Shown: positions 5,094-59,742, counted from the stretch's first letter. The stretch is DNA of 64,000 nt from Ammoniphilus sp. YIM 78166 (GCF_004522215.1 NZ_SDLR01000005.1:29086-93085); one strand, 5' to 3'. Translations and numbers: made by a program. Notes: generated by a model not told the origin, from the sequence alone.

Positions 5094-5175
5094 TGTTCGC
5101 CAACGGCAAAGCGCTCCGCACTTTACCTTGTAAAAGGGGTCAGACCTACCTGAGGGGGTATCCCCCGAAGCAAGT
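5094..5175 (+). repeat. ~80-bp three-hairpin intergenic repeat, copy R1 (full)
   Basis: cgccaacggcaaagcgctccgcactttaccttgtaaaaggggtcagacctacctgagggggtatcccccgaag; near-identical to copies at 12191-12275 and 59664-59742. Confidence 0.8.
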
Positions 5176-5703
5176 AAGGGTTGAAAGTAAGATGGAAGCC
5201 TTGACCTCCTCGATTGCCGAGATGACGCAAGCGATTCATGGATGGCAGAAGGTGACTTAGCTGGTGGAGACCCTAACTGAATAAACAAATATAACCCTAC
5301 CCAACACAATATGATGGATAGGGTTTTTAGCTTTTAAGAATAAATTCAGACAAATACTAAAATGTATCTTCTTCCCCTACTTTTTTGCGTTTAAAATGAA
5401 TGTACAAAAATAGGAGGTTATCCATTATGCTTTGATAGAACAGGTCCAGTCAGCATTTCCATTCTAACTTCTAGTAAAACTTTTCGATTACGGGCCTCGC
5501 CCTCGCCCCATTAGCATCTTCCCTGCGCTCCGCTAAACAATCTCTCATTTTAGCTCATCATATTTTCTCACATTCCCAATCCAACGAAAGATTCTCCCTA
5601 ACTACAATCTTCGTTATTTATTTTGAATACGTGTAATTATACGTGTTAATATGTATAATATAAGAAGGAGCGGACAAATGAAGGCATATTCTTCAGTGAA
5701 CTA

Positions 5704-5847
5704 ATGAAGCTAGTTCGGGTAAAAGGTGATCACTACCAGTTCAAACACCCAACGAAGCCTGGACTAGTTACCATCCCTCATCCCCAAAAGGACTTTCCCC
5801 TTAGAACACAGAGAAGTATCTTAAAACAACCTGGAATTCAGGGATAG
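5704..5847 (+). CDS. hicA: HicA-family toxin, N-terminally truncated (47 aa; probable pseudogene)
   Basis: MKLVRVKGDHYQFKHPTKPGLVTIPHPQKDFPLRTQRSILKQPGIQG matches HicA C-terminal consensus (LVR.KGSH..KHP...VT.PHP.KDL..T..SILKQAG); an upstream in-frame-shifted ATG at 5678 gives MKAYSSVN-stop, so the first helix appears deleted; sigma-A-like promoter TTGAAT-17-TATAAT region upstream. Confidence 0.5.
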   Translation: MKLVRVKGDHYQFKHPTKPGLVTIPHPQKDFPLRTQRSILKQPGIQG

Positions 5848-5895
5848 ATTTTTTTCAAGAATGTCAATTTATAGTAACACTGGAGGGTTGTTTAT

Positions 5896-6297
5896 ATGAA
5901 GGATCGATACATTTTTCCCGCATTATTGGCGTATGCCGAGGATGGAATCTCTGTAGAGTTTCCGGATCTGCCAGGATGCCTGACCTACGGAGACTCGGAA
6001 GAAGAAGTACTAAGAAAGGCTAAGGAAGCAATGGCTCTTCACCTATACGGTATGGAGCAAGAAGGCGAGTCGATTCCAGAACCTTCAAAATTCAAACTCA
6101 TTGCAACAGAAAATAATCAGGCCGTATTACTCGTAGAAGTATGGATGCCTCCATTTCGTCACGAAATGGAAAACAAAGCCGTAAAGAAAACATTGACCAT
6201 TCCAAAGTGGCTTGATGATTTAGCCCAAGAAAACAACGTAAATTTTTCCCATATACTACAGGATGCTTTGAAGAAGTATCTTGGAGTGAAGGATTAA
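5896..6297 (+). CDS. hicB: HicB-family antitoxin
   Basis: 133 aa; N-terminal HicB/UPF0150 fold pattern (ISVEFPDLPGCLTYGDSEEEVLRKAKEAMALHL) and C-terminal DNA-binding tail; RBS GGAGGG 8 nt upstream; directly follows hicA remnant. Confidence 0.8.
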   Translation: MKDRYIFPALLAYAEDGISVEFPDLPGCLTYGDSEEEVLRKAKEAMALHLYGMEQEGESIPEPSKFKLIATENNQAVLLVEVWMPPFRHEMENKAVKKTLTIPKWLDDLAQENNVNFSHILQDALKKYLGVKD

Positions 6298-6534
6298 TCT
6301 TCTTAGGGCAAAGAATTTGCCTATACAAGGTTGGTTACTGATTCCAAGATGCATATCTTCGGTAGTCCCATATTCCCAGGTAAGCGGAAGCGATTTCCGA
6401 ATTCCTGCATTATTTAACGGAAAGAGGGACAGTCCTCTTTTATAAGTTTATACAATAAGTGGAAATACTCTAGCAAGATAAGTATGTGAAGACGCTATCC
6501 ACTAAAGCCTACCTTCTATTATTTTTGCATGCCC

Positions 6535-6573
6535 TGTTCGTCAACAGCAAAGTGCTCCACACGTTACTTTATG
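6535..6573 (+). repeat. three-hairpin repeat, copy R2 (5' half, degenerate)
   Basis: tgttcgtcaacagcaaagtgctccacacgttacttt aligns with 5' half of the repeat consensus. Confidence 0.5.
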
Positions 6574-7011
6574 ATGAGGGATTGTTCCTCATTCTGCTGC
6601 TACATCCATGATGGATGCGATGTCAAACAACTGACCAATAGTAACAACAGCATCCATTTGAGTTTTCACGGAAGCAGATGAAGCAGGTACATCAAGCTAT
6701 AGTGTCTTGCCATCAGGCTTGTTGAAATACAGAAAATCACGGATTCGTTCTGTTCACGAACTTCCTTTCGTTAGAGGTCAACTGAGGTTAAGTCTGGGGA
6801 AGCGTATTTTCTTTGAGTTTTTGGCAGTGGCGACATAACGGAGAAATAAAAAATGCTCCCAAAAGTAAGGGAAGTTGCTAGACGCAATGATTTCGAATGA
6901 TATCAACAAGAGTATCGAATGCATATTGTTTGTTTACCATGTGAACAGTGAAATCTTCTGCCTTTGGCTGAGTCATGACGAGCTTTTTGCCATTCATCTG
7001 GAGAAACACGA

Positions 7012-7260
7012 CTAGGGCAGTAAAAGCAGTTCGTTTTTAGCGTTCTGAAAAGGATGATTCTGGCCGAGGGATTCAAACAAGGCTGCAGCCTTACTGAATA
7101 GATCTGCATAAGCATCCTCTCCGAAAACGGACTGCTGGGGTCGCATCACTGCAGAGTTTAATTCATTTCGACTTTTGACGCCAATCATTTCTCCAGGACT
7201 ATATAATTCAATGAGACGACGATTTATCTTTTCGATTTCACTTTCCGTAAGATATCTCAT
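7012..7260 (-). pseudogene. Doc/Fic-family (death-on-curing-like) toxin remnant, truncated and active-site degenerate
   Basis: 82 aa aligns with Doc N-terminus (RPQQSVFGEDAYADLFSKAAALFESLGQNHPF) but the Fic motif HPFxDGNKR is replaced by HPFQNAKNE and the ORF stops immediately after; start overlaps upstream ORF stop (ATGA). Confidence 0.5.
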
Positions 7261-7571
7261 CTCTTAACCAAATTCTTAATCGTTTCTTCATAGTTATCTA
7301 GCACATAATCGAAGGCCTGATCTAAGGCAGGATCCTCAAATAGTCTGTCATTCGAGTTATGGTTTTTCTTTTCATCCATCATACTGGGTGTTGAAAGACG
7401 GTCCTCAGCGACAAAGTCAACTCCAGGGCTGGCCACCATTCGACGGAGCATGTTGTACGCTAACAGTATATCGTGTTCAGAGAGTCTGTCTACAAGATAG
7501 TGGAGCTGTTCTTTGCCAATCTGGATTGGCTTTTCTTTACGTACAACCTTTTTTGTCATTTCTACTAACAC
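7257..7571 (-). CDS. 104-aa ORF upstream of and translationally coupled to the Doc-like remnant; possible antitoxin (position only)
   Basis: 104-aa ORF, 4-nt overlap with the Doc-like remnant in the order expected of an antitoxin-toxin operon; family not recognised from sequence. Confidence 0.35.
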   Translation of the reverse strand: MLVEMTKKVVRKEKPIQIGKEQLHYLVDRLSEHDILLAYNMLRRMVASPGVDFVAEDRLSTPSMMDEKKNHNSNDRLFEDPALDQAFDYVLDNYEETIKNLVKR

Positions 7572-7696
7572 ACCTCCATTTCATATAAACAATCATACTA
7601 ATTTATACTTTACTCTCAAGGAATGAACTGAATGATCTAACGTAGATTGAGGGAAAACACTTGATGACAGTGTGAGTAGTACGGTTCATGCCGGCT

Positions 7697-7728
7697 TCTG
7701 GGATACCCCCCAGGTAGGGGTCTGACCT
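7697..7728 (-). repeat. three-hairpin repeat, copy R3a (3' half, inverted orientation)
   Basis: reverse complement ggtcagacccctacctggggggtatccc matches hairpins 2-3 of the repeat. Confidence 0.5.
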
Positions 7729-7770
7729 CAATGTCATCAAGCTATACTACCAATAAATTTGGTTGTGACA

Positions 7771-7803
7771 GTCAACGGCAAACTACTCCACACTTTACCG
7801 TTA
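7771..7803 (+). repeat. three-hairpin repeat, copy R3b (5' half)
   Basis: gtcaacggcaaactactccacactttaccgtt aligns with 5' half. Confidence 0.45.
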
Positions 7804-8001
7804 GCGGATCAAATAAATGAAAAGAGTATTCATAAATAACGATTACCCTTTAACAGCTTCACGTGGAGTGAGGGACAGTTCCTTGTCGCAAAGTAAAGCG
7901 CGAAGCGCTTTACGATTACGAACAGAAAGCTCCTCGTTTCATTCGTTTTGTTTAATTGCGGCTGTCTTCCTCCCATTGAAATGGCGGGCTTGTATCGTGG
8001 T

Positions 8002-8640
8002 CTAGGACCTGCCCTCCATCAGCTTCACCCGGAAGAGGATGACTCGGTCATACTCAAGGAATTCTGAAGGAAGCTCACCCGTTTCGTCATACTGAGTGAC
8101 GAGCTGTTCTCGAAAGATGATACCCTGTTTGTTGTCCTCTAAAACGGCCATGACCGTGAGCGGTTGATTAAGCTTTATTGGTTTAGACATACTGAGCTGA
8201 TGGGTGACACTCCCTCCACGAGAGCCCTTGAAAATGACGTCTTTTTCGGTGGCGCCGATACTCCCTCCATCGATTACGGATGCCCTCATGCGAAGCCAAT
8301 GCTCTTTTTCATCTTCTTGTTCTTTCCAATCATAAGCAAACAGCAACTGACTTTTTTTTCTAATTTCCATCCCCATATCCAGTTCTTGCTCTTGTTTGAC
8401 CCCTTTTTCAAACCTTTCTACAAATGCATACATCGTCGTTACCAGCTCGGTATTTTTGTCGACATCTAATACCTTTACCTGATCAAGCATTAAGCCCGTT
8501 ATAATGCGCTTCGTTTCATCAGACAGGGAGGCTGGCGCGATGGTTGCCACGTGCTCTGGATTGGGTTGTTGCTGACAACCCAGCGTAAACATGAGAAGGA
8601 ATCCCGTGATAATGGGTCTCAGAAAGTTCTTCATTACCAT
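8002..8640 (-). CDS. hypothetical lipoprotein
   Basis: 212 aa; signal peptide with lipobox FTLGC; no recognisable catalytic motifs. Confidence 0.55.
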   Translation of the reverse strand: MVMKNFLRPIITGFLLMFTLGCQQQPNPEHVATIAPASLSDETKRIITGLMLDQVKVLDVDKNTELVTTMYAFVERFEKGVKQEQELDMGMEIRKKSQLLFAYDWKEQEDEKEHWLRMRASVIDGGSIGATEKDVIFKGSRGGSVTHQLSMSKPIKLNQPLTVMAVLEDNKQGIIFREQLVTQYDETGELPSEFLEYDRVILFRVKLMEGRS

Positions 8641-8821
8641 TCTCCTATCGTAATTAATGATACCTCTTGTATAGACGTTCCAGGAATGGAAGAAGTTTCA
8701 CCCACGACTTTTCAGCGCCGCTGTAATCCCACTTTGTGCTCGTCACCACGAAACAACTGTGGGATGAATCTCCGTATGGAGCCATTCTCTGAGTTAAACG
8801 TTTATTTGGCTTCGAAACGGT

Positions 8822-9010
8822 AAGGAGGCTGCGCGCCGCGTTTCGTTACCGCTAGAGATACTACCCTCTGAGCATAATCAATAGCCTTTTCAAACCCGGA
8901 GCCTTCCGCCCATGCTACCCCTATCCCGGCATTAAACGCATCGCCGGCTGCGGTGGTATCCACTCTTTGACTGGATGCGCAGGTGGATGCCGGACCTGCC
9001 CTGCTTCATA
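8822..9010 (-). pseudogene. PfkB/ribokinase-family carbohydrate kinase C-terminal fragment
   Basis: minus-strand translation ...VDTTAAGDAFNAGIGVAWAEGSGFEKAIDYAQRVVSLAVTKRGAQPP carries the PfkB signature-2 (DTTGAGDAF-like) but only ~55 codons remain. Confidence 0.4.
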
Positions 9011-9274
9011 ATAGCTGACTCCTTTCCGTTGTCTCGCAGCGTTCAGCCCGTTCCCTAGCTAGGATACCCGGGTTGGATTGTATAAGAGATATGATTCTTA
9101 GAAGGCGGATGAGTTTTTCTGACAAGGGAGGTACTCTTTCCTATTACCAAATAACGGAAAAATTCTAGAGGGAGGGTGGGGGATCCTTTTTTGTGTGGAA
9201 AAGAAAAAAAAAACTGCAGGTGGCAGGTCGTGGGAGAATAGAGCCTATACACAAGCCCTTTCGACTACTTTCGG

Positions 9275-9320
9275 CTGGGGTCAGACATTCTACCTGAGCG
9301 GGTATACCCCGAAGCGGGCA
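9275..9320 (+). repeat. three-hairpin repeat, copy R4 (3' half)
   Basis: ctggggtcagacattctacctgagcgggtataccccgaagcgggca. Confidence 0.55.
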
Positions 9321-9827
9321 CTGCTCCAAGTCAGGCAGGGCCATGCTATACTTAGCGGTTTCGTCGTCCCTTCTTTGAAGCGTCTCTCCTAATACAGAAA
9401 GGAAGTAGTTCACCCTCATTGGCTGAAGAGATCCTGGAACTTTTACTTCGATGATCTACCTCTTATTTTCTTTGGTTGCGTCAATGTCAATGCCTCTTGC
9501 CCGCTCCCACGCTACCTTGGTTACCGACCCTTGACTGGCCAAATCGTTGACAGTGCACTCATATTGTTTTCTTGATTTATATGAACCTTTGGAGGTTCTT
9601 TTTTCGGTCATTCTAATGTTCTAGCTTAAAATTACCAATCAAGCCGTATGGTCTCTTTTTTCGAGATAAGAACCCATTGGCAGCTAATGACCTGCATACT
9701 GATTAACCTCTAGTTGTGGGGCAGGTGAACCTAGTAGTTCGTTGTTACTTCTCGATCTGTAAGAACGTTCATTTCTTTTAACAATTCAAGTATTCTTTCT
9801 CTTAATGTGGACAAGGATCCCAACCTC

Positions 9828-10046
9828 CTACGAACACGAACAATTGATAAGGTCGTAATTCGAATACCTAGATTCATAATGTTCCACGGCACCTTCTAAA
9901 CTTTGAAAAGATAACCATCCACCGTCTCTTTTGATCTCACCATCCCCTTTATAGGTGGTTTCTTTTTTTCCCTTTACAAATCGGCACTGAGAAAGGTGAA
10001 GTGTGCATCTTTTTGTTGGCTTATCTACGTTCATCCAAAGCATCAA
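9828..10046 (-). CDS. small hypothetical protein (72 aa)
   Basis: strong RBS GAGGAGGG 8 nt upstream of ATG; KGDGEIKRDGGW motif; no family assignment. Confidence 0.4.
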   Translation of the reverse strand: MMLWMNVDKPTKRCTLHLSQCRFVKGKKETTYKGDGEIKRDGGWLSFQSLEGAVEHYESRYSNYDLINCSCS

Positions 10047-10485
10047 AACCCTCCTCTAAATGGTGTAGTTATATTTTACCATTTTATACGAGTTAGCAGA
10101 GCATAGACTTACTCCTTTCTCCTCGTCTAGGATAGATCTCTCAATTAAAGAGAACCTCTTACTACTAAAACCAGTTCTTAATGGATACCAGTTCTTATCC
10201 AGAAACAGAACCTTTCCCCTGCGGAGAGGTTTTTTGTTTTTATGCTATAGCACCCCTCCCCTCTCCCCATTAAGGGGAATCACCTCAACCAAAACCAGTC
10301 TCCAGTCAAAACCGGTTTCGATTGACCACTCCTCTAATGGAGGTTATCGTAAAGTACTTTCTTGCTTTACTCAACAGAGGGACAGTCCCAGTGGCCTTGC
10401 ATGAATGTTACCAACTGGAACAAGTTCAAAAAATTTACATTTGCACTTTGTACTATATTGAAAAAAGGAGAGTAAGGTATCAAAA

Positions 10486-11811
10486 TGACCTTGTTCCCTT
10501 TTTTTTACTTTTATGAGGTTTTTAGTAATTCCCTATTTTGTTCTCATTCCTTCTCTTTGTTTTGTAAGTTAATTCTTTTACCAAAGCGACAGTTCCGAAC
10601 CATGGTTTTTCCTTTTCTAATGGTATAGGGACCTTTTGTCTTCCCTTTGATTTTTTCTTCTTTCTGTTAAGTTCGGTTAATAGCTTCTTACCAGGAAGAA
10701 ACAAATACGTTTGCAATATCCTAAAGAATACCCAAGGTGTTTCTGTCGACTTGGTGATCAATTTTAGGATAGTTGAGAGTCAGAAGGCGATAAGAGCTAG
10801 AAACATTTGATTCCAGATCCCTTGTGGCTTTGTACTCCAAATCTTGGTTAGCTTTAGATGTTGTTTCACCCATTTGAAGAATAATTCGATCATCCACCGA
10901 TTTCGATAAATCTCCATGATTTGTACGTCTGTAAGATCAAATCTTGTCGTTAGGATTCTAAAGGTTTGATCTTTTTCGTCCTTAAATTCAACATACCTTA
11001 CGGGTGTTTTAGATAAACCATACCTTACTTTGGCATCTTGTATAACAGATGGATGAGTAGTTGGATGGTTCTCTAATGTAATTAACCGAAGGTTTTTGGA
11101 GATTCGAACGACAAAGGAGATGTTCTTCCGCTGCCATTCCATGAGATTGTCTTTTGAAGGATACCCTCGATCCATGACATACGTGGCGTCCGCTTCTTCG
11201 ACGAGGAAACTTGAACTCTCATAGTCACTCACCGTTCCTGTGGAAGGAATGATCTTATCCGGGTAGGCTACGTCTGGTGAAACCACAACTAATCTTGTGT
11301 GTATTTTTACTGCATGATGGTCTTTTGAAATGTATGCCCAGTCGCAGAGTTGTTTTGGTAATCTAATTTCAGTAGAGTCCACAATATTCAGGCGACCAAT
11401 TCCACCTGGAAGTCCTTTCTTATCTTCTGTTAGCTGGTTTATGATGGCGACCACTCGAACAAAGAGCTTCTGAATCCACTCGGTGGGTAGTTCATTGATG
11501 CGCCGACATAATTGAGAGCCACTGATTTTTTCCATCCCAATCTCTTTACAAAGTTTAGGATAGGCTCTTAATTTTTCTTCCATATGTGCATAAGAACTCC
11601 ACTGATCTAATTGGGCAGCTACAAAAACTTTCAATAAAGACTTGGTCGTAAGCTTATACTTTCCATAATCTATTAAAGGGCAGTCAAAATCTTCTGTTGG
11701 GAGAAGGGATAAGCATTGACAAATGAGCATTTCTCGACCTATACTTTTACTATTCAATGGGAAAACTCCTTTGTAGAAGACTTGTTTGTTTAAGGGAACA
11801 AAACAAGGTCA
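10486..11811 (-). mobile_element. IS4-family insertion sequence (~1.3 kb) with imperfect terminal inverted repeats
   Basis: left end TGACCTTGTTCCCTT (10486-10500) vs right end reverse-complement TGACCTTGTTTTGTTCCCTT (11792-11811); encloses an IS4 transposase ORF. Confidence 0.5.
10780..11757 (-). CDS. IS4-family DDE transposase (possibly C-terminally frameshifted; downstream ORF 10522-10761 may be its tail)
   Basis: 325 aa; DRGY motif and YRNRWMIELFFKWVKQHLKL C-terminal signature typical of IS4 transposases; stops short of typical length. Confidence 0.8.
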   Translation of the reverse strand: MNSKSIGREMLICQCLSLLPTEDFDCPLIDYGKYKLTTKSLLKVFVAAQLDQWSSYAHMEEKLRAYPKLCKEIGMEKISGSQLCRRINELPTEWIQKLFVRVVAIINQLTEDKKGLPGGIGRLNIVDSTEIRLPKQLCDWAYISKDHHAVKIHTRLVVVSPDVAYPDKIIPSTGTVSDYESSSFLVEEADATYVMDRGYPSKDNLMEWQRKNISFVVRISKNLRLITLENHPTTHPSVIQDAKVRYGLSKTPVRYVEFKDEKDQTFRILTTRFDLTDVQIMEIYRNRWMIELFFKWVKQHLKLTKIWSTKPQGIWNQMFLALIAF

Positions 11812-11892
11812 ACAACTTCTACAATAGGAGTTTTTTTCTTGTGTGTAAATACTAGATTTTGAAAATATGGGATTTATTTAAAGTCGTGCAAG

Positions 11893-11939
11893 GCCACTGG
11901 GTCAGTCCCCTACCTGAGGGGGTATCCCCGAAGTGAGCA
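11893..11939 (+). repeat. three-hairpin repeat, copy R5 (3' half)
   Basis: gccactgggtcagtcccctacctgagggggtatccccgaagtgagca. Confidence 0.6.
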
Positions 11940-12192
11940 TAAGCACCAAACATACTTCTCTCATATTCCCCGGTCCGGCCCTCCTGATAGACAATGGCAT
12001 CACGGTAACGATGCATCGTGTTGATGTCATCTTCCTCCGGGCCCGGTGAATGATACCTTTCGTAATAGGGTGTCCCTTGGTAGGCCGGATTTAGCCTATA
12101 CTTGGCATCGAAAACATATTTATATACCACATCTGAATCTTGTTTTTTCAGTGTGAAAACATTGTCTGGCCTCTGAGGAAGCGTAGGAAAGT
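11940..12192 (-). pseudogene. duplicated internal fragment (~250 bp, ~90% identical) of the McrC-like gene (matches 18043-18295)
   Basis: ORF 11852-12130 encodes VYKYVFDAKYRLNPAYQGTPYYERYHSPGPEEDDINTMHRYRDAIVYQEGR..., nearly identical to residues of the 825-aa ORF; fragment is exactly bounded by repeat copies R5 and R6. Confidence 0.65.
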
Positions 12193-12275
12193 GTTCGCCA
12201 ACGGCAAAGCGCTCCGCGCTTTACCTTGTAAAAGGGGCCAGTCCCCTACCTGAGGGGGTATCCCCGAAGTGAGCA
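12191..12275 (+). repeat. three-hairpin repeat, copy R6 (full)
   Basis: gtgttcgccaacggcaaagcgctccgcgctttaccttgtaaaaggggccagtcccctacctgagggggtatccccgaagtgagca; hairpins aaagcgc-tcc-gcgcttt / agggg-ccagt-cccct / gggg-tat-cccc. Confidence 0.85.
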
Positions 12276-12429: not shown

Positions 12430-13782
12430 TCAGCTATTCCCCAAGAATTCTAGGTACTCAATATTGTAGTAATCTAACATTACCTTCCAATTTGCTTTCT
12501 TGTACCCACGGGCAACAGGATCATAGTTCTCATCAACATAAATTAGCCTAAATTTACGATTATCCTCTATTTGCTCACCGTTATAATCGAATACTAGCTT
12601 TGTTTCAATTTCACTTATAGCAGGTGCGTTATCTGTTACGTTTACCAACTCGTAACTAACTAATTTTTTATCTTTAAATATTTCGCGCAACCTACCTGCT
12701 AACTTACCTACTGTTAAATCCTTATCATAATTCGTAGTCATATTGGCAAGATTGCCATAATTGCCAGCTCCTATATAACTAAGATATTGCATAACGGATT
12801 TTTCAGGAGTATCGTCACCGTATTCAGTTAAACTACCGTTGGCAGGTATATCTTTCCCTACTGTTATTTTACGGGGTTTCCAGTCTTCCATAAACTCCCT
12901 TTGCCGTCTACTTTCTTCCCATAACTCCAACGATTTTGCTAACTGTTCGGTTGTTTCTTCTATTGTAGGCGGTTTATATTCTTTCGTAATACCTTTTTTC
13001 CCCTCTTTTATACTTCTAGCCCAATCCGCTAAAGATAACAACGTAGCTAATGCTTTTGCGGAAACTTGAATGTTGCCGTAGCCTAAATCTCTCCCGTGTA
13101 ATATACCGTTTCTATAAGGTAAAGTAATTTCTTCATTTGTAGTTTTTTTTCGGCTCTTACCGAATATTTTTGCTACTGTACCTATCCCACTTTCGTGAGC
13201 TGCGATTGTATCCCAAACGTTAAGGTCTACCTTTTCTGCAAAGAAACCATAACTTTCAAATTCGTTAACAAAGCCATCTATAAGCATTAAAAATAGCGGT
13301 ACACTTGCGTAGTATCTACCACTAAAATGATCGTCTAATGCGTTTATGAGTAAATCTCTGCGTGGTTTAAATTCTTCGATATTCTTTAGGCGAGCTGCAA
13401 GGAAGTTAACATTTTCCCTCTCCGTAAAAAAGCCAATCAATTCCCGTTCAGCATCATCTGGTTTTCCTTCTTCAGCAAGTTTTACGCACTTTTTCATTAA
13501 CTCATGGTTAAGTGTTTCAAACGCTATCCAGCCTTTTTTAGTGAAGAAATGATTAAACCTATCAACTGTATGAGTAAGTTCCTTAAACTTTTTACTTAAA
13601 GTCGGTACATCCTTAAATAACTCTTGGTTAACGGAAGTACCTAAACCAAATTGTTCAGCAATCGCAAACAATTCTTGTAAACCTTGCATTCCTCTAATGT
13701 TTGTTTCCATCTCTTTAATACTATAGTTATCTTTAATTCTTGGTTTATTATTATTCTTTTTTTTATGTTTCTTTTTGGCCAA
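12430..13782 (-). CDS. hypothetical protein (450 aa), Lys-rich N-terminus; last gene of AT-rich three-gene island
   Basis: long ORF in markedly AT-rich DNA (contrast with flanking ~45% GC); no recognisable family motif. Confidence 0.55.
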   Translation of the reverse strand: MAKKKHKKKNNNKPRIKDNYSIKEMETNIRGMQGLQELFAIAEQFGLGTSVNQELFKDVPTLSKKFKELTHTVDRFNHFFTKKGWIAFETLNHELMKKCVKLAEEGKPDDAERELIGFFTERENVNFLAARLKNIEEFKPRRDLLINALDDHFSGRYYASVPLFLMLIDGFVNEFESYGFFAEKVDLNVWDTIAAHESGIGTVAKIFGKSRKKTTNEEITLPYRNGILHGRDLGYGNIQVSAKALATLLSLADWARSIKEGKKGITKEYKPPTIEETTEQLAKSLELWEESRRQREFMEDWKPRKITVGKDIPANGSLTEYGDDTPEKSVMQYLSYIGAGNYGNLANMTTNYDKDLTVGKLAGRLREIFKDKKLVSYELVNVTDNAPAISEIETKLVFDYNGEQIEDNRKFRLIYVDENYDPVARGYKKANWKVMLDYYNIEYLEFLGNS

Positions 13783-13983
13783 TACACTTCCCCCTCAGAT
13801 ATTCCTTGTATATCTTACAAATTATAACAATTTATTTATTTCCCTTCAATTTTTTAGACAAATAAAAAGACTGCCAGTAGGTTATTTTTTTGTCTAAAAT
13901 CAACTTTAAGTAAAGCTCTATTTAATCCATCACTTCAATAAAAGCAAAAAGAGAAGCAGTATCTCTAGCTCCTCCATGTCTAT

Positions 13984-14697
13984 CTATATAGGCCCGATCT
14001 TTGGAAATGTTAAACTGTTGATTATTTTATAATGCCAATATAAATATTCCTTAATATATCCTAAAATGTAAGAATGTTTTATAAAAATATGATTTATTTT
14101 CCCAGAATAATAATCATCCCAAAAACGAGAAGTATATTTGTGATCTGAATGTTGTAAAATTCCATTATATAAATAGTCAAATTCACTATTTTCAAGTAAG
14201 AATCTAATGGATTTATTTCGTTCATCCAAATATCTTACGAACTCTTGGGTAATGTCTCCTTCCTTTTCGTGCAATACAGTAACTTTCAGTCCAATTGAAG
14301 CATCATTATTAATTAATTTCTCCCTGCATAACTTATGAATCCTTGTATAATATATTGAATCTCTTTGGTTAGCAATAATTGATCTATACTCATTTATTAC
14401 ATGTCTTACAGACTCCATATTTCCAATATAATACTTCCCATTATGTTCAAGTATTTCTACCCGTTCTAGAATGGGTAAATATTCATATTTAAGTACAAAA
14501 CAGACTGATTGCGCCATTTCAAAATCATCTAAAATATCCTTATCTGCTTTCTGTTCAAAACGAAAAGAAATATTCCCTGTTAATTTTGTTTTTTGAAAAA
14601 CTGCAGCCTTTTGTATTATGTTATCCACATCTAATTCGGTCTCAATTATCCTTTTTTCTACATCTTGAGGTAATACTATGCTTTCCCCTGAATCCAT
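13984..14697 (-). CDS. hypothetical protein (237 aa); middle gene of AT-rich island
   Basis: ORF co-directional with flanking island genes; no recognisable motifs. Confidence 0.5.
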   Translation of the reverse strand: MDSGESIVLPQDVEKRIIETELDVDNIIQKAAVFQKTKLTGNISFRFEQKADKDILDDFEMAQSVCFVLKYEYLPILERVEILEHNGKYYIGNMESVRHVINEYRSIIANQRDSIYYTRIHKLCREKLINNDASIGLKVTVLHEKEGDITQEFVRYLDERNKSIRFLLENSEFDYLYNGILQHSDHKYTSRFWDDYYSGKINHIFIKHSYILGYIKEYLYWHYKIINSLTFPKIGPI

Positions 14698-14867
14698 TAA
14701 GTTAGCTCCTTCTTCACAAATTCCATTTCATTATAAGGGCTATTCCAGTAATATTTTATATATAATTTCTTTGTTAATAATAATCTCAACTTTTTGCTTT
14801 ACCATCACTTGTGGTACGGTTCACCGTAACTTATGTAAATGAGGTTTTATCTTCTTAACATTTAAAA

Positions 14868-16742
14868 TTAATCACAGCAATTGTGTTTCTTCTCAGTCGT
14901 CAGATCGCCATCGATGAATCCCTGACATTCTAAACAACGAGGAACAACTGATATAAATTCTTCATAATTTTCCCGAATGTTTTGTTCTTTCTTCGTTAAA
15001 TATTTTCTCTTTCCAAAATCCAAATATGAGAACTCGCTTTCTATCTCTTCAAAATTATTTGATGTACATGCTAAAAGTAAATATTGATAATATTTAGCTA
15101 TTTCTTCATACGCTCTTTTAGCTTGGCGTTTTTTTCTTGCTATTACTTGAATGTGTCCTTCGTTCTCTACTAAATATTCCTCAAAAATCTTTCTGTTTTC
15201 AATAAAAAGGCGATTTAAATTTTCATCTTCATTTAACAATAATGAAAATCTAATAAACCCATAAAAAGAATTCGTTTTATGCTTTTTAGTTGCTCCATAA
15301 AAATAAATTTTTTGTGAAATATTAAGATAATCTTGAACATATTTTAAAAGTCCTAATACTTTATCTGTTAAACTAAGTACATCAAGTTTTTCTCCATTAT
15401 CAATTATTTTCACTACATTATATATTTTAGATATCACAAAATCTTCATTTATTGAACCTGCTAAAGGATAATTATTTAACTCATAAGATAAAAATGGTTT
15501 AAAGAAACGATTAAATATTTCTTTAGTTTTTTCATTTTGACTATTGGAAATTTGGCCTAAACCATGCCCCAGAATCGCCCTACTTAAAATTGAAGTTGGT
15601 AGTTGATCATTCTCAATCAGCTCTTTTTCGTCTTCAGTAATTACTACCCCTTGTTCATTTATCCTAATAAACGATTCTTTTACCTTACTATAATCCCCCG
15701 TAACCCATTGAACAGCAATAGACCTCTTAGCAATTATTTGTTTTTCGGCTTTATACTTCTCGTCTCTAGAACGTTTAATTTCTTCATAACTGCCAATTTT
15801 ATTATTAATATATTCCTCAATAGCAGTATGATTACTATCATTCAGTTCATTTTCTTTACCATAATCTGAGTTTACCCAAGCTATTAATGAACTAATTCTA
15901 TGTGCTCCATCTATAACATATATAGAACCATCTAAGTCTTCCCATAAAATAATAGCTGGAATTAATCCGTCATCTAAAAATGTTAAAATTAGCTTTTCTA
16001 ATCTTTCTACAGTCCATTGATTTGTATCTCGTTGAAAAATTGGCTTTCGCAACTGTTCATAAAAAAACTGACCTTTCTCTAATTCTGTTAAATTAAAACT
16101 ACTTCTTCTATCTGATTGAGAAATAGAACTGTTATTATTATCTTCAACATTACTTCTCGGTATTAGGTGCTCTAAATTACACTTTATATTTGTTTTAAAC
16201 ATTTTTTTCCTCACTTCAAAGTATAAGATTTTTTTAAATTGATCTTCTGTAATTTTTTTTTCTAAATATAATATTTGTGCATCTTGAACAATTAAAATAT
16301 TATAAATATACATATTTGCTAATTTATCTATAAAATCTATAAATAAATTTAAAGCAGTTCTCTTATTACCATCTTCGAATGCATGGATATTATGATGAGA
16401 TATAAATAGATTTACAATAAATTCAAGTTCAGAATCAAAATATACTTTTTTAGCAAAAGATGACTCATAGGAATTTCTTTCAGCAAAGATACCTGGCTTA
16501 AAATCCGAATGTTTAATATTAATTATTTGTGCATGTAGTACATATTCATCTATCTGTTCCTGGGTTATACCAAGTTCAACCGGAGTGTAATTATGTACTA
16601 TATTATTTTCAAATACAATTTTAGAGATTTCCACAGAATGCTTAACTTGATACTCGCCACCATCATAGTCCCTTAGATTTTTATATGCTATTTTTTCTAA
16701 AGGCGATATTGCACGGTTTGTAATAATAATTTTTTTATCCAA
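14868..16742 (-). CDS. Doc/Fic-domain - ParB/DndB-like (DGxHR) nuclease-domain fusion protein with C-terminal Cys-rich motif (624 aa)
   Basis: Fic/Doc motif HAFEDGNKRTALNLF (consensus HxFx[DE]GN[GK]R) at ~aa 120; ParB/Srx-superfamily motif YVIDGAHRISSL (DGxHR as in ParB, DndB, DUF262) at ~aa 275; C-terminal CLECQGF...HNCCD; AT-rich. Confidence 0.7.
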   Translation of the reverse strand: MDKKIIITNRAISPLEKIAYKNLRDYDGGEYQVKHSVEISKIVFENNIVHNYTPVELGITQEQIDEYVLHAQIINIKHSDFKPGIFAERNSYESSFAKKVYFDSELEFIVNLFISHHNIHAFEDGNKRTALNLFIDFIDKLANMYIYNILIVQDAQILYLEKKITEDQFKKILYFEVRKKMFKTNIKCNLEHLIPRSNVEDNNNSSISQSDRRSSFNLTELEKGQFFYEQLRKPIFQRDTNQWTVERLEKLILTFLDDGLIPAIILWEDLDGSIYVIDGAHRISSLIAWVNSDYGKENELNDSNHTAIEEYINNKIGSYEEIKRSRDEKYKAEKQIIAKRSIAVQWVTGDYSKVKESFIRINEQGVVITEDEKELIENDQLPTSILSRAILGHGLGQISNSQNEKTKEIFNRFFKPFLSYELNNYPLAGSINEDFVISKIYNVVKIIDNGEKLDVLSLTDKVLGLLKYVQDYLNISQKIYFYGATKKHKTNSFYGFIRFSLLLNEDENLNRLFIENRKIFEEYLVENEGHIQVIARKKRQAKRAYEEIAKYYQYLLLACTSNNFEEIESEFSYLDFGKRKYLTKKEQNIRENYEEFISVVPRCLECQGFIDGDLTTEKKHNCCD

Positions 16743-17294
16743 TTCACACCAATCCCATCAAAAAATATATCTATTGTTAATTCACTTAAACTTTCCTATA
16801 TAGAAAATGCTTCCATTATGATTTATTTTAACAAAACTCAGATATTTTTTCGATTGTTTACTTTTATAGATAACTCATTTAAACAAATATAATTATTAAT
16901 GATTTGGAATGTTGGATTCTTTGCCTGTTTAAAAAGTAGGGCAAATCTAAAAAACCTATAAACAATAAGATATTATTGAGATGATGTACAATAGACAGAG
17001 GAAGTTACAAAGATATCTAATAAATCCATTCGATTAATAATTGAAGATACTATATTAATTATTGTGTAATTGCAACCATAAAAAGAAGATAGAGAAATAT
17101 TAATAACAATTTAAATAAGAAAATTATGATTAAGAAACAACTTTTGGTTCTAAAGAAGGTTTCATAATGTCTTGGAAATTAAGCGATACTAAAATAATCG
17201 ATAAAAAACAGGCTGTGTCTTTAACCAAAGACACAGCTCTTTTAAACCTCATTTACTTATGGTACGGTTCTCCCCTATTAATCCTTAATCTATC

Positions 17295-19772
17295 TCAATC
17301 CACCACATTAACCCTCAACACCCTCCCCGCCAAATCCACTTCCTCCCGATCCAACTCCACCTTCACCTTCCCTCGTCTTCTCTTCTCCCGCCATTCTATT
17401 AAATCTTCTTCCGTTTCTAACCTTAACTCCGCAATCTCCCTTGCACGGTCTAGCATATACTTCGATGTTAAGAGAAACGTGTACACACCATATCCCCCTA
17501 ACTCAATCGGCTCTTTTCTCTCTTCCCACTTACCAATAGTAAATCGAACATAGAGTTCACCATCTGTTCCCCTTCTCGCCGGTCTTTCATAGATCTCCCC
17601 ACGACGAACCACCTGCCAACTCTCTACTCTCCCCACCCTATGAATACCAGAATTTTGTTCACCAAATAAACGTCTCGATTGACACAACCCAATAAACTCA
17701 AGATTGCTTAGCATATGCTGCTTGTCCATTAGATTCTTGAGAGGCATATAATAGATTCGATTGTCTAAACAGATACCAAGTTGTTCCTTATCTCGCAATG
17801 ACCCAATCAACACGTTCTTCCCACTTAATTTATCCTGGTAGTACTCCTTCGTTCCACGAGGTCTTGTCGCTCTCTCATAGGCTTTTTCAGGACTATCTAA
17901 GATCAGCTCATCTAGAAACCGTTCCATTAGCCTAGTTGAGTTTGGTAGGAATGGTAACGCTCCGATGTTTACCTTCTTTATACTTCCATAGAATTGATGT
18001 TCCTCAAATTTTTCTTCATCAGGATAAGGAAACAAGACATACGCACCAAACATACTTCTCTCATACTCCCCGGATCGCCCCTCCTGATAGACGATGGCAT
18101 CCCGGTAGCGATGCATGGTGTTGATGTCATCTTCCTCTGGGCCCGGTGACTGATATCGTTCAAAGTATGGCGTCCCTTGGTAGGCAGGGTTTAATCGATA
18201 CTTGGCATCGAAGACATATTTATATACCACATCTGAATCTTGTTTTTTCAGTGTGAGTACATTGTCTGGCCTCTGAGGAAGCGTAGGAAAGTCTCGACTA
18301 TCTTCGGACGGCAGGGCATTATAAAACAGAGTAAAGGTCTCTCCATTATGAGGATTTCGGTAGGTAACGCTAGCTTTTTTCGATTTATCTAAGGTAATAA
18401 ATAAACCATGGCGGTGAACCCGAATGATGTCCTGCTTCAACAACTCATATTTTTCCTTTAATAAACTATGAATCTTCAGGAAGCACCAATATTCATATAA
18501 CTGAGCAATATCCTTCATGGACAAGCGGAATAAGTCCCCTTGAATAGACAGACCCTTCATCAAGATCAAGTAACTCCGATAAATATCTCGATAGCCGGGT
18601 GCCATTTGTAATACAAGGGTAACTGACATCTGCTTCATCTCACCTAAATCCGAAAGAAAGTCAAACCGTAATAGCCTTCGAATTTGTCCTCGCATCTGTT
18701 CAATTTGATTATGTAAAAGGGGATCCTGGGTTCGATGCTTATCGTTGAGCCGCTGCTGGATTTGTTTCAATTTCATCTCTATTCTCTCAAGTACCCATCG
18801 TACAAAACGATTCTCGTGGGTGTCGAAGTCTATCCTTCTTTTCATCTCGATCAACTTGGTTGGAGAATAGCCTTGTCCATTGATATTGAACAATCCATAT
18901 TGTTGATTCGGAACAAGTAAATGAGGCTTCTTAGCCAGTGCTGCTACATTTTCTTTTCCTGCCCGTTTTACACGATCGGCCCCCACCCATCTTGTTTCAG
19001 AAGCTAACCGATGATGGGGCGCTATTTGAAGTCTCTCAACTGAATGGACCAATTGTTGAAAGAGCTGCTTTAAGATAGCCAGAAACTCAGTTAAACTTTG
19101 GTTTCTAGTTTCCTTCAAGCCAGTTAGTTGATAGGTTTTTCGAAGAAAATCAAAGGACAAGTTATAGATCTGCTCATTAACGTCTTGGAGGATTAATTGG
19201 TAGTCCTTCTTATAATCCATCTTGGAAGGGAATATTTCCAATCGGATTTCAAGGGCTCTTTGGCCTTCCACAAGGATGATGAGCTCCGTATAACCGACTT
19301 CATTTTGAAAATTTAGGACTCCGGTGAGAAGGTCTTTTCCCAAGGGTTTGATCGCTTGACGCAGCAGCACATTGTCATGGTGGAAACCAATGAGTTTCTC
19401 ACTCTTACGTTGGATAACGAGCTGATAGGATTGATTTTCATAAAAGCACGGGAGGATTCTCTCATCACCAAGTTCTACTAATTGATAATGAATAGGAGAG
19501 AAAAGCTGGATCCTCTCTAGCTCAATGGGATAACCAGCCTTAACTACTTCGCATCTCGCCTCCACCCATTCCTGCGCTTTATCACGATGAAGCTGTAACG
19601 ACTCAACGGTTGGATGAAACGGCTTGCCTTGGATGTACAAATCAAAGAGATTTGTTTCGATCTTCAGGAGCTCGGTTTCCTGTTTAAGATAGCCAGAATG
19701 AAGTGAATCCATCTTCCTCAAACCTCCGAAGCATATAGGCGATTTTTCGGGCACTAAGCGGAAACGGAGCAT
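17295..19772 (-). CDS. McrC-like type IV restriction endonuclease subunit (DUF2357-like region plus PD-(D/E)xK nuclease, extra C-terminal domain)
   Basis: 825 aa; D...DAKYR (PD-(D/E)xK-like) motif in VYKYVFDAKYRLNP; overlaps/abuts McrB-like GTPase gene, the conserved McrBC arrangement; true start may be internal Met (19712) given 89-nt overlap. Confidence 0.65.
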   Translation of the reverse strand: MLRFRLVPEKSPICFGGLRKMDSLHSGYLKQETELLKIETNLFDLYIQGKPFHPTVESLQLHRDKAQEWVEARCEVVKAGYPIELERIQLFSPIHYQLVELGDERILPCFYENQSYQLVIQRKSEKLIGFHHDNVLLRQAIKPLGKDLLTGVLNFQNEVGYTELIILVEGQRALEIRLEIFPSKMDYKKDYQLILQDVNEQIYNLSFDFLRKTYQLTGLKETRNQSLTEFLAILKQLFQQLVHSVERLQIAPHHRLASETRWVGADRVKRAGKENVAALAKKPHLLVPNQQYGLFNINGQGYSPTKLIEMKRRIDFDTHENRFVRWVLERIEMKLKQIQQRLNDKHRTQDPLLHNQIEQMRGQIRRLLRFDFLSDLGEMKQMSVTLVLQMAPGYRDIYRSYLILMKGLSIQGDLFRLSMKDIAQLYEYWCFLKIHSLLKEKYELLKQDIIRVHRHGLFITLDKSKKASVTYRNPHNGETFTLFYNALPSEDSRDFPTLPQRPDNVLTLKKQDSDVVYKYVFDAKYRLNPAYQGTPYFERYQSPGPEEDDINTMHRYRDAIVYQEGRSGEYERSMFGAYVLFPYPDEEKFEEHQFYGSIKKVNIGALPFLPNSTRLMERFLDELILDSPEKAYERATRPRGTKEYYQDKLSGKNVLIGSLRDKEQLGICLDNRIYYMPLKNLMDKQHMLSNLEFIGLCQSRRLFGEQNSGIHRVGRVESWQVVRRGEIYERPARRGTDGELYVRFTIGKWEERKEPIELGGYGVYTFLLTSKYMLDRAREIAELRLETEEDLIEWREKRRRGKVKVELDREEVDLAGRVLRVNVVD

Positions 19773-23243: not shown

Positions 23244-23281
23244 TTATATTCTCCTTCTTTAATGGTAGATTTAAGGTAAAA

Positions 23282-50043: not shown

Positions 50044-50362
50044 CTATTCTAGGCACAAGTTAACTCTCGCAATGCTTTATCCCTGCTCATTCATTGGTTT
50101 CCTACTCTATAGTAACAAGTAAACATTTCAAGAGTCAAACGGGACCTTGCTCCCCTACTTTTGAACATGAATCGTTCGATGATCGTACATGGTCAGAAGC
50201 GCTAAGGGGGAACCACACTAATATTAAACTTATTTTAATGGAATCCATATGTTCAATGTCCTTCCTTAATTGACTGATATGTCTGATTCAATAGGCAGCT
50301 GACTCCATAACTCAATAAAATAAAAATAGCCAATGCAACTATTGGAAATTTCACAAAGATTA

Positions 50363-57681: not shown

Positions 57682-57909
57682 TCTGATACCAAAGCATTGT
57701 ATCTCCCGTTATGTTCATAAATCGCATTCAAATTCACCGCGAATCCTTAGAGTAATTCCACTAACATCGACCGAGCGACCACCCGCTCAGGATGGGTGAA
57801 GAAGAAAAACATCATATTTGTCCACTTTAACAAAATCTATTTTTTGGGCAGAGCCAAGAAAAGCCTAATTACATTACTACTTAGAAAGTGGTCGACAGTC
57901 CGACGGCTT

Positions 57910-58335
57910 TCAAATGTTTAGCCTCTCCGTGAGCTCTTTGATTTTCGGCAAGTTCATATCCCAGCCCGCAAGCGCACCGAGGTAACACTCTTCACCATCC
58001 GGTTTTTCCGCAAAATCACCGTGCACAACGGACAATACGGTGTTTCTGTTTCGTTCATCGAGCGTGAGTATGACAATGTCTTGCGGCATCGTGAAGCTGT
58101 AACGGATCATTTTCACCGGCTCGATCCCGAGAATCTTCCCCTCGATGTCGATAGTTCCCTCGGCGGTTTTCCAATACATGGCGCTGCCGACTTTCCAATC
58201 AGATTCCAGTGCACCGAAACCAGGCCAAAATTGCTCGATCCACTGTTTGCTGAGAGCCGGATTCGTCAAAACTTGCCAAACCTTCGCAGCCGGAGCATTG
58301 ATTTCAATTGATTTTTCAACAAGGAGCTTCTTCAT
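57910..58335 (-). CDS. SRPBCC (AHSA1/START-like) domain protein
   Basis: 141 aa; IEINAPAAKVWQVLTNP...WIEQF typical of SRPBCC/Aha1-like. Confidence 0.75.
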   Translation of the reverse strand: MKKLLVEKSIEINAPAAKVWQVLTNPALSKQWIEQFWPGFGALESDWKVGSAMYWKTAEGTIDIEGKILGIEPVKMIRYSFTMPQDIVILTLDERNRNTVLSVVHGDFAEKPDGEECYLGALAGWDMNLPKIKELTERLNI

Positions 58336-58421
58336 TTATACCTCCCGGTAGTCTATCATGTCCTATTATATGTTTTTGCGCAAAACGATGAACCTGAGGT
58401 CTATCGGATATATTTTTTGAC

Positions 58422-58904
58422 CTAGTCTTTAGGGAAGTTCTCGAGAAGCTGTTCATATTTCTCATGCCATATTTTCCATTCGTTTTCACGTGATTGTATT
58501 GCCCTTCCATCCAACAATACGTTAATGACATCCAAACATACATGCCAGCCGGCAAGATCCTTTGAAGTATGGTTTGTTATCTTATTAATCTTTTCAATTA
58601 AGACTAAGCGACTTCCATCGGACTCAGGATATAGCTCAAAACGAACACGGTCTTCGCCCCATGTATATTCCAAAACGGAGTTTGGTTTAAGCTCTATAAT
58701 TTCAAGTTCCTCAAATGTACCATCCTGCATGTCAAACTTAATTATTCCTCCTTCTCGGAGGTCGTCGATCTGTAACTCAGAGAACCACTTCTCCAACTTA
58801 TCATTCTCCGTCAACGAAGACCATATTTTCTCAACTGTGTGCTTTAGATTACGCTCGAACCGAGCAACATATCCATTCTGTACCTGCTGTACAACCGCTA
58901 ACAT
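58422..58904 (-). CDS. SRPBCC (AHSA1-like) domain protein
   Basis: 160 aa; HTVEKIWSSLTENDKLEKWF SRPBCC signature. Confidence 0.75.
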   Translation of the reverse strand: MLAVVQQVQNGYVARFERNLKHTVEKIWSSLTENDKLEKWFSELQIDDLREGGIIKFDMQDGTFEELEIIELKPNSVLEYTWGEDRVRFELYPESDGSRLVLIEKINKITNHTSKDLAGWHVCLDVINVLLDGRAIQSRENEWKIWHEKYEQLLENFPKD

Positions 58905-58929
58905 GCAATACCTCCTTAGGATTTAGTTC

Positions 58930-59170
58930 GATCAGGAGAATCGTGAATCGTATTTTCCACCTCATCAAGCATACTGGTAATCTTGCTTGCGCTAAATTCA
59001 CTGTCCAGGCGATTACCCAAAAACCAGCAGTAACAACTCCAGCCTGCCGACATTCTAAGCTCCTCGGCTTGCGAGTGGCTTCATTTCGCCTGTAGCCACG
59101 TCAGAAAGCGGCTCGTGTGCACCATTGCTTATGTAAGTCTTTTTAATTCGTTCCTTGCCGAGCGCTTTCA
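58930..59170 (-). pseudogene. DNA alkylation repair (AlkD-like HEAT-repeat) gene fragment
   Basis: minus-strand MQELKALGKERIKKTYISNGAHEPLSDVATGEMKPLA then stops; N-terminal ~40 codons only. Confidence 0.3.
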
Positions 59171-59663
59171 GTTCCTGCATAACCTTCCTTTATAATCATA
59201 CCCACTTCATTGTAACCATCTAACTAATATTCTTTATCAAGCAATGCTCTAACTTGATGTAAAAGATCAAAAGTAGTTTGCCATTCGAGAGAAGTTAGAT
59301 CAAATCCATTTTACTTGTGTACTCTTGGTACAATTAAACCTGAACCTAATAAGACTTGTTGAGGTTTTTGAACGAATAAACAATATTTATTACTGAGAAC
59401 GACTCAGTGTTCTGTATCTGATCCAGGAAAACAGAAAGGTCATCCCATATTTTTACTACCTCTTTTCAACATTTCCATCCATCTTCATAAATTCTTGAAC
59501 TTAATTCTGTTATCCTGCTGCCCGTTTATTAAAAAATGAGCTGCATAAACAGCTCAGCGTTCTTCATCGAAAGCGCTCGAAAATTGAAGTGGAATGGTGC
59601 TTTCAAGTAATTAACGGATACGGCCGACAAAACTCGGAAAACGTACACTAAGCGAAATTTTAC

Positions 59664-59742
59664 TCGCCAACGGTAAAGCGCTCCGCGCTTTACCTTATAA
59701 AAGGGGACTGTCCCCTACCTAAGGGGGTATTCCCGTAGCTAG
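59664..59742 (+). repeat. three-hairpin repeat, copy R8 (full)
   Basis: cgccaacggtaaagcgctccgcgctttaccttataaaaggggactgtcccctacctaagggggtattcccgtagc. Confidence 0.8.

Follow-up and report, generated by a model that had tools for sequence, protein, structure and literature searches.

We have found that a 64,000-nucleotide stretch of the genome of Ammoniphilus sp. YIM 78166, a soil member of the Bacillales (NZ_SDLR01000005.1, 29086-93085; hereafter the window) contains a family of short, modular repeats with a predicted three-hairpin structure. The repeat family is real, and although it is apparently undescribed it belongs to a familiar class of small dispersed bacterial repeats. Profile and covariance-model searches place 14 pieces of the element at 11 loci in the window, and the best match within the family has an E value of 1e-32. 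We consider it probable that the element is a lineage-restricted, hairpin-forming, non-coding repeat of the class that includes repetitive extragenic palindromes (REPs), bacterial interspersed mosaic elements (BIMEs), BOX elements and miniature inverted-repeat transposable elements (MITEs), and that it also serves as a substrate for recombination.

A modular repeat with sharp ends

In the aligned copies the parts of the unit follow one another as a 5' leader, hairpin 1, a linker, hairpin 2, hairpin 3 and the end TGARCA, and conservation stops at the start of the leader and at the final CA. The leader reads (G/C)TGTTCGCCAACGG, hairpin 1 is GGyAAAGCGC-TCC-GCGCTTTACC, and hairpin 2 is a 6-1-6 palindrome, GGGGAC-n-GTCCCC, which is followed directly by the tag CTAC in all ten copies that have a 3' module. 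The 3' module itself, CCTGAGGGGGTATCCCCGAAGTGARCA, is very conserved and holds hairpin 3 within CCTGAGGGGGTATCCCCGAAG. There are two subtypes of 5' module, A (the leader plus GGCAAAGCGC) and B (ATCGTAAAGyAC), as well as a two-hairpin variant, found at 6531-6590, 7868-7928 and 61507-61563, whose hairpin 2 is longer (GAGGGAyWGTyCCTC) and which lacks a 3' module; three 5'-only variants do not carry the CTAC tag. Breakage is seen at hairpin 2 in particular, where two 3'-only copies begin, three 5'-only copies end just beyond it and the two halves of a composite share it.

The window was searched with an nhmmer profile built from the three full copies at 5093-5177, 12191-12275 and 59660-59744, which returned eight further partial copies with E values from 7.6e-11 to 3e-3, and with a covariance model containing the three hairpins, run across all 64 kb with filters off. 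The covariance model returns the same loci as the profile and a repeat finder, and no extra ones in the 64 kb. A fourth full copy is split by an insertion sequence (IS). The 85-nt consensus quoted in a preliminary description of this DNA is the exact sequence of the copy at 12191-12275, and shuffles of the window yield no matches to it. That description had spoken of at least nine copies of about 80 bp, full, half, inverted or internally deleted, clustered in a junkyard at 5-12 kb; the 11 loci, with a unit of about 85 bp, include every one of these types, and 8 of them fall within 5.09-12.28 kb. The same orientation is shared by 8 of the 11 loci, in a region whose GC skew is uniformly negative. 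The pieces are as follows.

5093-5177, plus strand: full copy lacking 2 nt of hairpin 2 and carrying an additional C in hairpin 3 (nhmmer E 1.4e-29; covariance model 87.9 bits)
6531-6590, plus strand: 5' module and long-stem hairpin-2 variant (GAGGGATTGTTCCTC), no 3' module (nhmmer E 1.2e-6 over 6534-6588; covariance model 31.8 bits)
7687-7729, minus strand: 3' module only, beginning at hairpin 2 (GAGGTCAGACCCC); 96% complementary to 29347-29373 (nhmmer E 2e-5)
7762-7801, plus strand: degenerate 5' module with hairpin 1 only, the weakest member (nhmmer E 3.3e-3; covariance model E 0.13)
7868-7928, minus strand: 5' module and hairpin 2, no 3' module (nhmmer E 6.3e-7 over 7868-7924; covariance model 38 bits)
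9277-9323, plus strand: degenerate 3' module beginning at hairpin 2 (nhmmer E 3.4e-5)
10346-10389, plus strand: left part of the IS-split full copy, a subtype-B 5' module (ATCGTAAAG...) up to hairpin 2; 86% identical to 61479-61522 (repeat finder)
11899-11939, plus strand: right part of the IS-split copy, the duplication copy GGGTCAGTCCC and the 3' module; 37 of 37 positions identical to the consensus (nhmmer E 7.6e-11 over 11899-11941)
12191-12275, plus strand: full copy, equal to the consensus (covariance model 109.7 bits; fold -39.1 kcal/mol, z -3.1)
29334-29380, plus strand: internally deleted copy with the 3' module intact (nhmmer match 29344-29380)
59660-59744, plus strand: full copy, about 90% identical to the consensus (nhmmer E 4.8e-31; covariance model 105.3 bits)
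61479-61563, both strands: composite of a subtype-B 5' module (plus) and a subtype-A 5' module (minus), head to head (covariance-model matches on both strands; nhmmer match 61507-61563 on the minus strand)

Several of these pieces carry the marks of rearrangement. In the piece at 29334-29380 an internal deletion at a TCC microhomology has brought the left arm of hairpin 1 against the right arm of hairpin 2, and in the composite at 61479-61563 both 5' modules use one common hairpin 2 (GGACTGTCC). The 3' module at 11899-11939 is identical to that of the full copy at 12191-12275, and the latter sits 155 nt past the stop codon of a gene encoding a 450-amino-acid protein of unknown function.

The element has the properties of a non-coding, dispersed repeat that is not tied to one gene, as had been proposed: no reading frame is conserved across copies, and the loci are scattered and end sharply. 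A six-frame translation of the element found no match among 5.8 billion predicted proteins, and Rfam 15 gave none even at an E value of 10. The element was not scored as an intrinsic terminator or as a promoter, and for this reason, and because the adjacent genes have terminators of their own, we reject the idea that it is an intrinsic terminator. A tRNA-derived element or tRNA integration site is likewise rejected since the window has no tRNA genes. The ends of the unit resemble each other only weakly: AGTGTTCGCC at the 5' end and AGTGCTCACT, the reverse complement of the 3' end, agree at 7 of 10 positions in the copy at 12191, and the match is poorer in the copy at 5093 and in the copy on contig L001 described below. 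Beside these three copies and the one at 59660 there is no direct repeat of 2-10 nt, even with the boundaries moved by up to 3 nt. The bases that precede GTTCG read (A/C)(G/C)T, a pattern drawn from four copies only.

That the unit forms three hairpins finds support in the alignment, in which 86% of cells pair in the three-hairpin register as against at most 63% when the partner columns are slid. Some changes preserve pairing: in hairpin 1 there is C-G in four copies and T-A in three, and A-T in place of G-C in two; in hairpin 2 there is AC..GT in seven copies and TC..GA in three. Nevertheless, only two of four full copies fold better than their shuffles (z -3.1 and -3.5), whereas the other two do not (z -0.24 and -1.2), and RNAalifold departs from the three-hairpin fold. 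G-T versus A-C asymmetries in the stems favour neither strand consistently.

Copies also occur outside the window, which argues against a family restricted to it. A degenerate pattern for the 3' core is found in only two contigs among 185,579 species-representative genomes. Both belong to metagenome-assembled genomes (MAGs) from one sample, L001 being assigned to Ammoniphilus sp. and L002 to a Bacillaceae bacterium; as these are short contigs from one assembly, L001 and L002 should be treated with caution as separate lineages. A full copy lies between convergent genes at 3062-3151 of L001, and in L002 two direct copies of the 3' module flank a vapBC pair. L002 and the window agree at every position over 33 nt of the 3' module (100% identity), while the flanking DNA has no similarity. 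Copies are thus found in three genomes, where they lie between genes or where truncated genes end. Metagenome contigs contained neither the 3'-core pattern nor a hairpin-1 pattern, an exact-pattern scan of viral contigs for the 3' core was empty, and neither plasmids nor phages yielded anything relevant to the element by BLAST. We found no description in the literature searched of the core sequence or of repeats of this group.

Element ends at truncated genes, toxin modules and an insertion sequence

Homology to other sequences ends at an end of the element at four junctions, namely the two sides of a McrC gene fragment, a BsrG-like toxin module and a DUF3231 pseudogene in L001, and over 2-8 nt at the junctions the element ends resemble the native sequence. 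The features concerned in the window are these.

11940-12190, minus strand: fragment (251 bp) of a McrC-type (PDDEXK_7) gene, 90% identical to 18038-18292 of the intact gene (Pfam PDDEXK_7 E 1.6e-19)
10390-11898, minus strand: IS4-family insertion sequence of 1509 bp with inverted repeats and ends AGTGGCCTTGCA (DDE_Tnp_1 E 4.9e-23)
59745-59990, minus strand: BsrG-like type I toxin module, 84% identical to 43770-43892
43766-43780, minus strand: apex of the terminator hairpin of a BsrG-like toxin RNA (AGTGTTCGAGCACTG), an exact 15-mer

The edges of the McrC fragment lie within 2 nt of the 3' end of one element on the left and of the 5' end of another on the right. The exact bracketing claimed for this fragment therefore holds on both sides to within 2 nt, but the left copy starts at 11899 rather than 11893 and is the half of an element split by the insertion sequence. 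To call the fragment captured is an over-reading, as insertion into a redundant paralogue followed by deletion explains it equally well. In L001, the DUF3231 pseudogene fragment (2738-3055, with in-frame stops) covers residues 1-105 with 86% protein identity to a paralogue 1.7 kb away, two intact paralogues being present at 4739-5719; the fragment stops 3-7 nt before the element, and there is no remainder of the gene past the element. We also note that a break relative to L003, a contig (Logan SRR27869038) from a strain that is 92-96% identical, lies upstream of a GNAT gene at about 45 nt from the copy at 61.5 kb. That copies delimit decayed or duplicated segments thus stands for the four junctions but not throughout, for one bracket is an artefact of the insertion sequence, and we reject the 29.3-kb copy as the boundary of a duplication of MazG-like genes (28.8-29.2 kb), the homology of which stops approximately 130 nt earlier.

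The insertion sequence, whose transposase is frameshifted and 100% identical to the IS4 transposase of Ammoniphilus sp. YIM 78166, has landed inside hairpin 2 and has duplicated 11 bp of its target, GGGACAGTCCC on the left and its counterpart on the right (given above for 11899-11939). Excising it together with one copy of the 11-mer restores a complete element. The piece at 11899-11939 is therefore not an independent half copy, because it is the right half of a full element cut by the insertion sequence. All nine examined insertions of this IS group, comprising the one in the window and eight relatives (L004, L007 and L008-L013, from Bacillus sp. 1NLA3E, Alkalihalobacterium alkalinitrilicum and Neobacillus jeddahensis, the last with six copies), are flanked by 11-bp duplications of the form GGGnCnGnCCC, and the target is GGGTCAGGCCC in four of the six N. 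jeddahensis copies (L008-L013). This IS4 subgroup is widespread in Bacillaceae and its specificity for GGGnCnGnCCC is near-absolute. The target preference of IS231A is GGG(N)5CCC. The duplications made by IS4-family elements span about one helical turn, and some members of the family have target preferences (PMC2266710). The insertion therefore marks hairpin 2 as a GGG-N5-CCC site and is not proof that the element recruits the insertion sequence; recognition of the element as such is rejected, since the preference of the group is generic, and the covariance model finds no element at the IS-bearing loci of the other Bacillaceae. The same specificity accounts for repeated hits of this subgroup on GC-rich hairpin repeats and terminators.

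The N. jeddahensis targets (L008-L013) each form one arm of a GC-rich long palindrome of 55-60 bp, made up of GGGGCCTGTCCCCC, a spacer of about 25 nt with cgttaacgc, and GGGGGTCAGGCCCC, often with a run of A before it and a run of T after it. These palindromes may be a separate family of REPIN-like (paired REP) repeats or of bidirectional terminators; the covariance model does not link them to the Ammoniphilus element.

A copy immediately preceding a decayed type I toxin-antitoxin module had been reported, and indeed the full copy at 59660-59744 adjoins a truncated BsrG-like module (59745-59990) that is without the far half of its terminator hairpin and without the antitoxin promoter region. 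The homology of this module to both of its paralogues and to L003 ends at 59745, one base past the element, and L003 has other DNA at this site and no element. Simple insertion into the 59.7-kb module is rejected, as local alignments of the upstream flank with the paralogues score 10 and 8 against a shuffle mean of 9.4. There is a further relationship between the element and these modules. If the 8 nt at the 5' end of the copy at 12191 are joined to the 7 nt at and just after its 3' end, the result is AGTGTTCGAGCACTG, which occurs exactly only once elsewhere, at 43.77 kb in the terminator hairpin listed above, and with two mismatches in the paralogue at 26.55 kb; in the third toxin module, the element stands exactly at the centre of the terminator hairpin. 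The same hairpin closes the Rfam BsrG model, which implies that it is ancestral to the toxin family. The 15-mer match could mean that the element targets hairpin apices, that its ends derive from one, or that the junction formed at a 7-nt microhomology. At the other full copies the two flanks do not complement each other, and on this ground we reject insertion into hairpin loops in general.

The window has three BsrG-like type I toxin modules in all (26493-26823, 43708-43900 and 59745-59990), of which only the first reaches the Rfam gathering score (26548-26823, 106 bits), this being the sole Rfam match in the window at that score. They are part of segmental duplications (26.5-29.1 against 43.7-44.4 kb, and 45.4-46.1 against 60.4-61.1 kb) that carry Schlafen-type helicase fragments, MazG-like genes and GNAT genes. 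Comparison of L003 (1937-1986) with the window (50114-50151) shows the GNAT-toxin block joined in L003 to sequence that lies 9.6 kb away here, upstream of a MarR gene; the joint is a strain-specific rearrangement at a toxin terminator.

Likeness to known repeats and possible origins

The element resembles the REP, BIME and REPIN sequences of Proteobacteria, which are mobilised by the REP-associated tyrosine transposase (RAYT), a Y1 HUH transposase, in that it consists of short, GC-rich, extragenic hairpins, forms mosaics and makes no target duplication. As IS1397, ISKpn1 and ISPpu9 insert within REPs, so an insertion sequence is found here inside a hairpin, and the head-to-head composite resembles a REPIN. 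Insertion of ISPpu9 in REPs has been described (PMC8450116). The reverse strand of the element reads GTAG-GGGGACnGTCCCC, which has the tag-plus-stem layout of the GTAG REPs (PMC3733652), although this is a post hoc observation and the stem is only 4-6 bp. Unlike a REP, the element has a palindrome of only 13 nt together with two more distinct hairpins and a strongly conserved 3' module, its copy number is apparently low outside the window, against tens to hundreds per genome for REPs, and its host belongs to the Bacillales; the paper on GTAG/CGTC REPs does not mention Firmicutes, and names Bacillus only for the MITE Bcr1 (PMC3733652). With the BOX elements of Streptococcus pneumoniae it shares a non-coding nature, a scale of about 100 bp, modules in partial combinations, a predicted stable structure, an intergenic position and a host in the Firmicutes. 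There is no sequence similarity to BOX, however, and whereas BOX modules are 45-59 bp each, with boxB tandemly repeated, the modules of the element are 20-35 bp and are exchanged at the central palindrome.

Like bcr1 and MIC231, MITEs of the Bacillus cereus group in the Bacillales (PMC3733652, PMC2266710), the element is small, non-coding and dispersed with sharp ends, and has termini of the form 5'-(G)TG...CA-3'. It differs from MITEs in having no target-site duplication and a terminal inverted repeat of only about 7 of 9-10 nt, where MITEs have some 10 bp or more, and there is no parent insertion sequence with matching ends in the window, the sole one (10390-11898) having unrelated ends. Palindrome-associated transposable elements derived from the ends of IS200/IS605 (for background, PMC6006769) offer another comparison. 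Like these, the element has subterminal hairpins towards both ends, as hairpin 1 begins some 14-17 nt in from the 5' terminus and about 6-10 nt separate the end of hairpin 3 from the 3' terminus; it has neither a terminal inverted repeat nor a target duplication, and there is an orientation bias within uniform GC skew. In contrast to them, the element has no tnpA or tnpB nearby, has a third, central palindrome, and has no established 4-5-nt left-end target that is conserved. The features of integron attC sites, that is core sites, uniform orientation of an array and an integrase, are absent from the consensus, the 5-12 kb cluster and the window, respectively.

The proposal that the element is MITE/REP-like or a recombination hotspot is supported in part by its dispersal, its sharp ends and the four junctions, the last of which fit a recombination hotspot, but receives no help from target duplications, which are absent, or from the terminal repeat, which is a weak one of 7-9 nt. 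We suggest that new copies would arise through the action, on the ends of the element, of an enzyme whose gene lies elsewhere in the genome. A single-strand HUH/Y1 route of the REP or IS200/IS605 kind would be favoured over DDE cut-and-paste transposition because target duplications and real terminal inverted repeats are missing, the hairpins are subterminal, and hairpin 2 can be read on the reverse strand as GTAG followed by the palindrome. Dispersed copies would then become substrates for homologous and microhomology-mediated recombination, with recombination at element ends deleting, inverting and joining DNA; at truncated genes the order of events may have been insertion into redundant paralogues followed by deletion between or beside copies. 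Such recombination would account for the half copies broken at hairpin 2, for the composite with its shared hairpin and for the gene fragments that end at element ends.

Several observations weigh against this interpretation. Most of the copies in the window lie in one decayed region of 7 kb, so local duplication could explain much of the count. There is no candidate transposase in the window: a Y1_Tnp domain is found in none of its approximately 55 proteins, and its only transposase genes are the IS4 pseudogene and a PDDEXK_2 fragment. No site was found that is cleanly filled in one sequence and empty in another, the upstream flank at 59.7 kb being unrelated to the paralogous modules. Only one contig in each MAG carries the conserved core, where copy number may be very low, and the covariance model finds no copy in 21 kb of Ammoniphilus sp. 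CFH 90114. The covariation in five full copies is not significant (two double-changed pairs against 0.8 expected, equalled in 69 of 500 shuffles), and RNAalifold favours another fold in the 3' two-thirds of the element, in which hairpins 2 and 3 pair with each other through their G and C runs. As for a nearby source of the enzyme, we reject the neighbouring 450-amino-acid gene as a transposase, as its product matches nothing in Pfam, NCBIfam or PADLOC and no second element end lies beyond it.

An alternative is that the repeat is passive, a terminator-like hairpin cluster, perhaps derived from a BsrG-type terminator, that has no mobilising enzyme and has spread by segmental duplication and microhomology-mediated illegitimate recombination. 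The concentration of 8 of 11 loci in a 7-kb region rich in gene remnants, the many segmental duplications in the window, the 2-8 nt of similarity at junctions, the identity of the joined element ends with a BsrG-like terminator apex, and the lack of a target duplication, a strong terminal repeat or a transposase in the window all agree with such an origin. On the other hand, near-identical units stand 47 kb apart in unrelated contexts, units in two other genomes have no common flanks, the same sharp ends recur at every locus, and 33 nt of the 3' module are fully conserved between genomes where the flanks are dissimilar. We regard a passive repeat as improbable on these grounds, yet as an explanation to be taken seriously. 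That the element is instead a structured RNA, such as a 3'-untranslated-region stabiliser, an attenuator or a small-RNA module reused beside several genes, appears to us very unlikely. Its three hairpins with a possible 8-bp closing stem that includes G-U pairs (-39 kcal/mol, z -3.1), its G4 and C4 runs that permit two alternative, switch-like folds, the TTTTA after hairpin 2 on the reverse strand with its look of a weak terminator, and the intergenic position of the intact copies are consistent with an RNA function. They have to be set against the lack of an Rfam match, an orientation to transcription that varies (the copies at 12.2 and 59.7 kb are antisense and those of L001 and L002 sense), the canonical terminators that adjacent genes already possess, the failure to find a promoter, the many copies that are fragments in junk DNA, and stem asymmetries consistent with neither strand.

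We think it highly unlikely that the copies are attC-like sites at which a site-specific recombinase delimits small cassettes, many of them toxin-antitoxin pairs, even though copies at 5-12 kb alternate with hicAB (5.66-6.30 kb), a phd/doc-like pair (7.01-7.57 kb) and other small units, two direct copies flank vapBC in L002, and modules are exchanged at the 6-1-6 palindrome of hairpin 2. Copies in the 5-12 kb cluster are in mixed orientations and many are fragments, the window has no integrase or recombinase gene, the consensus is without RYYYAAC/GTTRRRY core sites, and copies elsewhere in the window are solitary. To our knowledge, moreover, a 1-bp central spacer is unlike the sites of known tyrosine or serine recombinases.

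Genomic surroundings and significance

The stretch 3971-10345 is dense in gene remnants, among them C-terminal fragments of VOC/glyoxalase, alpha/beta-hydrolase and PfkB-kinase (sugar kinase) genes, and also holds apparently intact hicAB-like and phd/doc-like pairs and an open reading frame for a lipoprotein-like product of 212 amino acids that has no family match. A low-GC defence island (12430-29161, GC down to 28%) encodes GmrSD-like, McrB/McrC-like, NERD-topoisomerase zinc-ribbon, HIT, Schlafen/AbiO-like helicase and MazG-like proteins as well as a type IV methyl-directed restriction helicase with a PLD domain. Two of its proteins, of 450 amino acids (12430-13782) and 237 amino acids (13984-14697), were unmatched in Pfam, NCBIfam and PADLOC. 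The fragment of a PD-(D/E)XK 'transposase' (PDDEXK_2, Rpn-like) at 46297-46563 adjoins a duplicated GNAT fragment.

The specificity of the IS4 subgroup for its target is a practical by-product of this analysis and may be more useful than the repeat family. It is conceivable, if rather doubtful, that the element is the repeat half of a REP/RAYT-like or other hairpin-recognising single-strand system in spore-forming Bacillales, for which no such system has been described, or that it inserts at the apices of terminator hairpins such as that of the BsrG-like toxin, and that it reshapes toxin-antitoxin and defence loci in doing so. If confirmed across the genome, the element would be an undescribed family of small repeats for the Bacillales, in which few REP-like elements have been characterised, and its copies would help to type strains of Ammoniphilus and to mark the breakpoints of rearrangements there. 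The element stands where a restriction gene paralogue, a type I toxin module and a DUF3231 paralogue have been cut short, which suggests that it has a part in turning over islands of defence and toxin-antitoxin genes.

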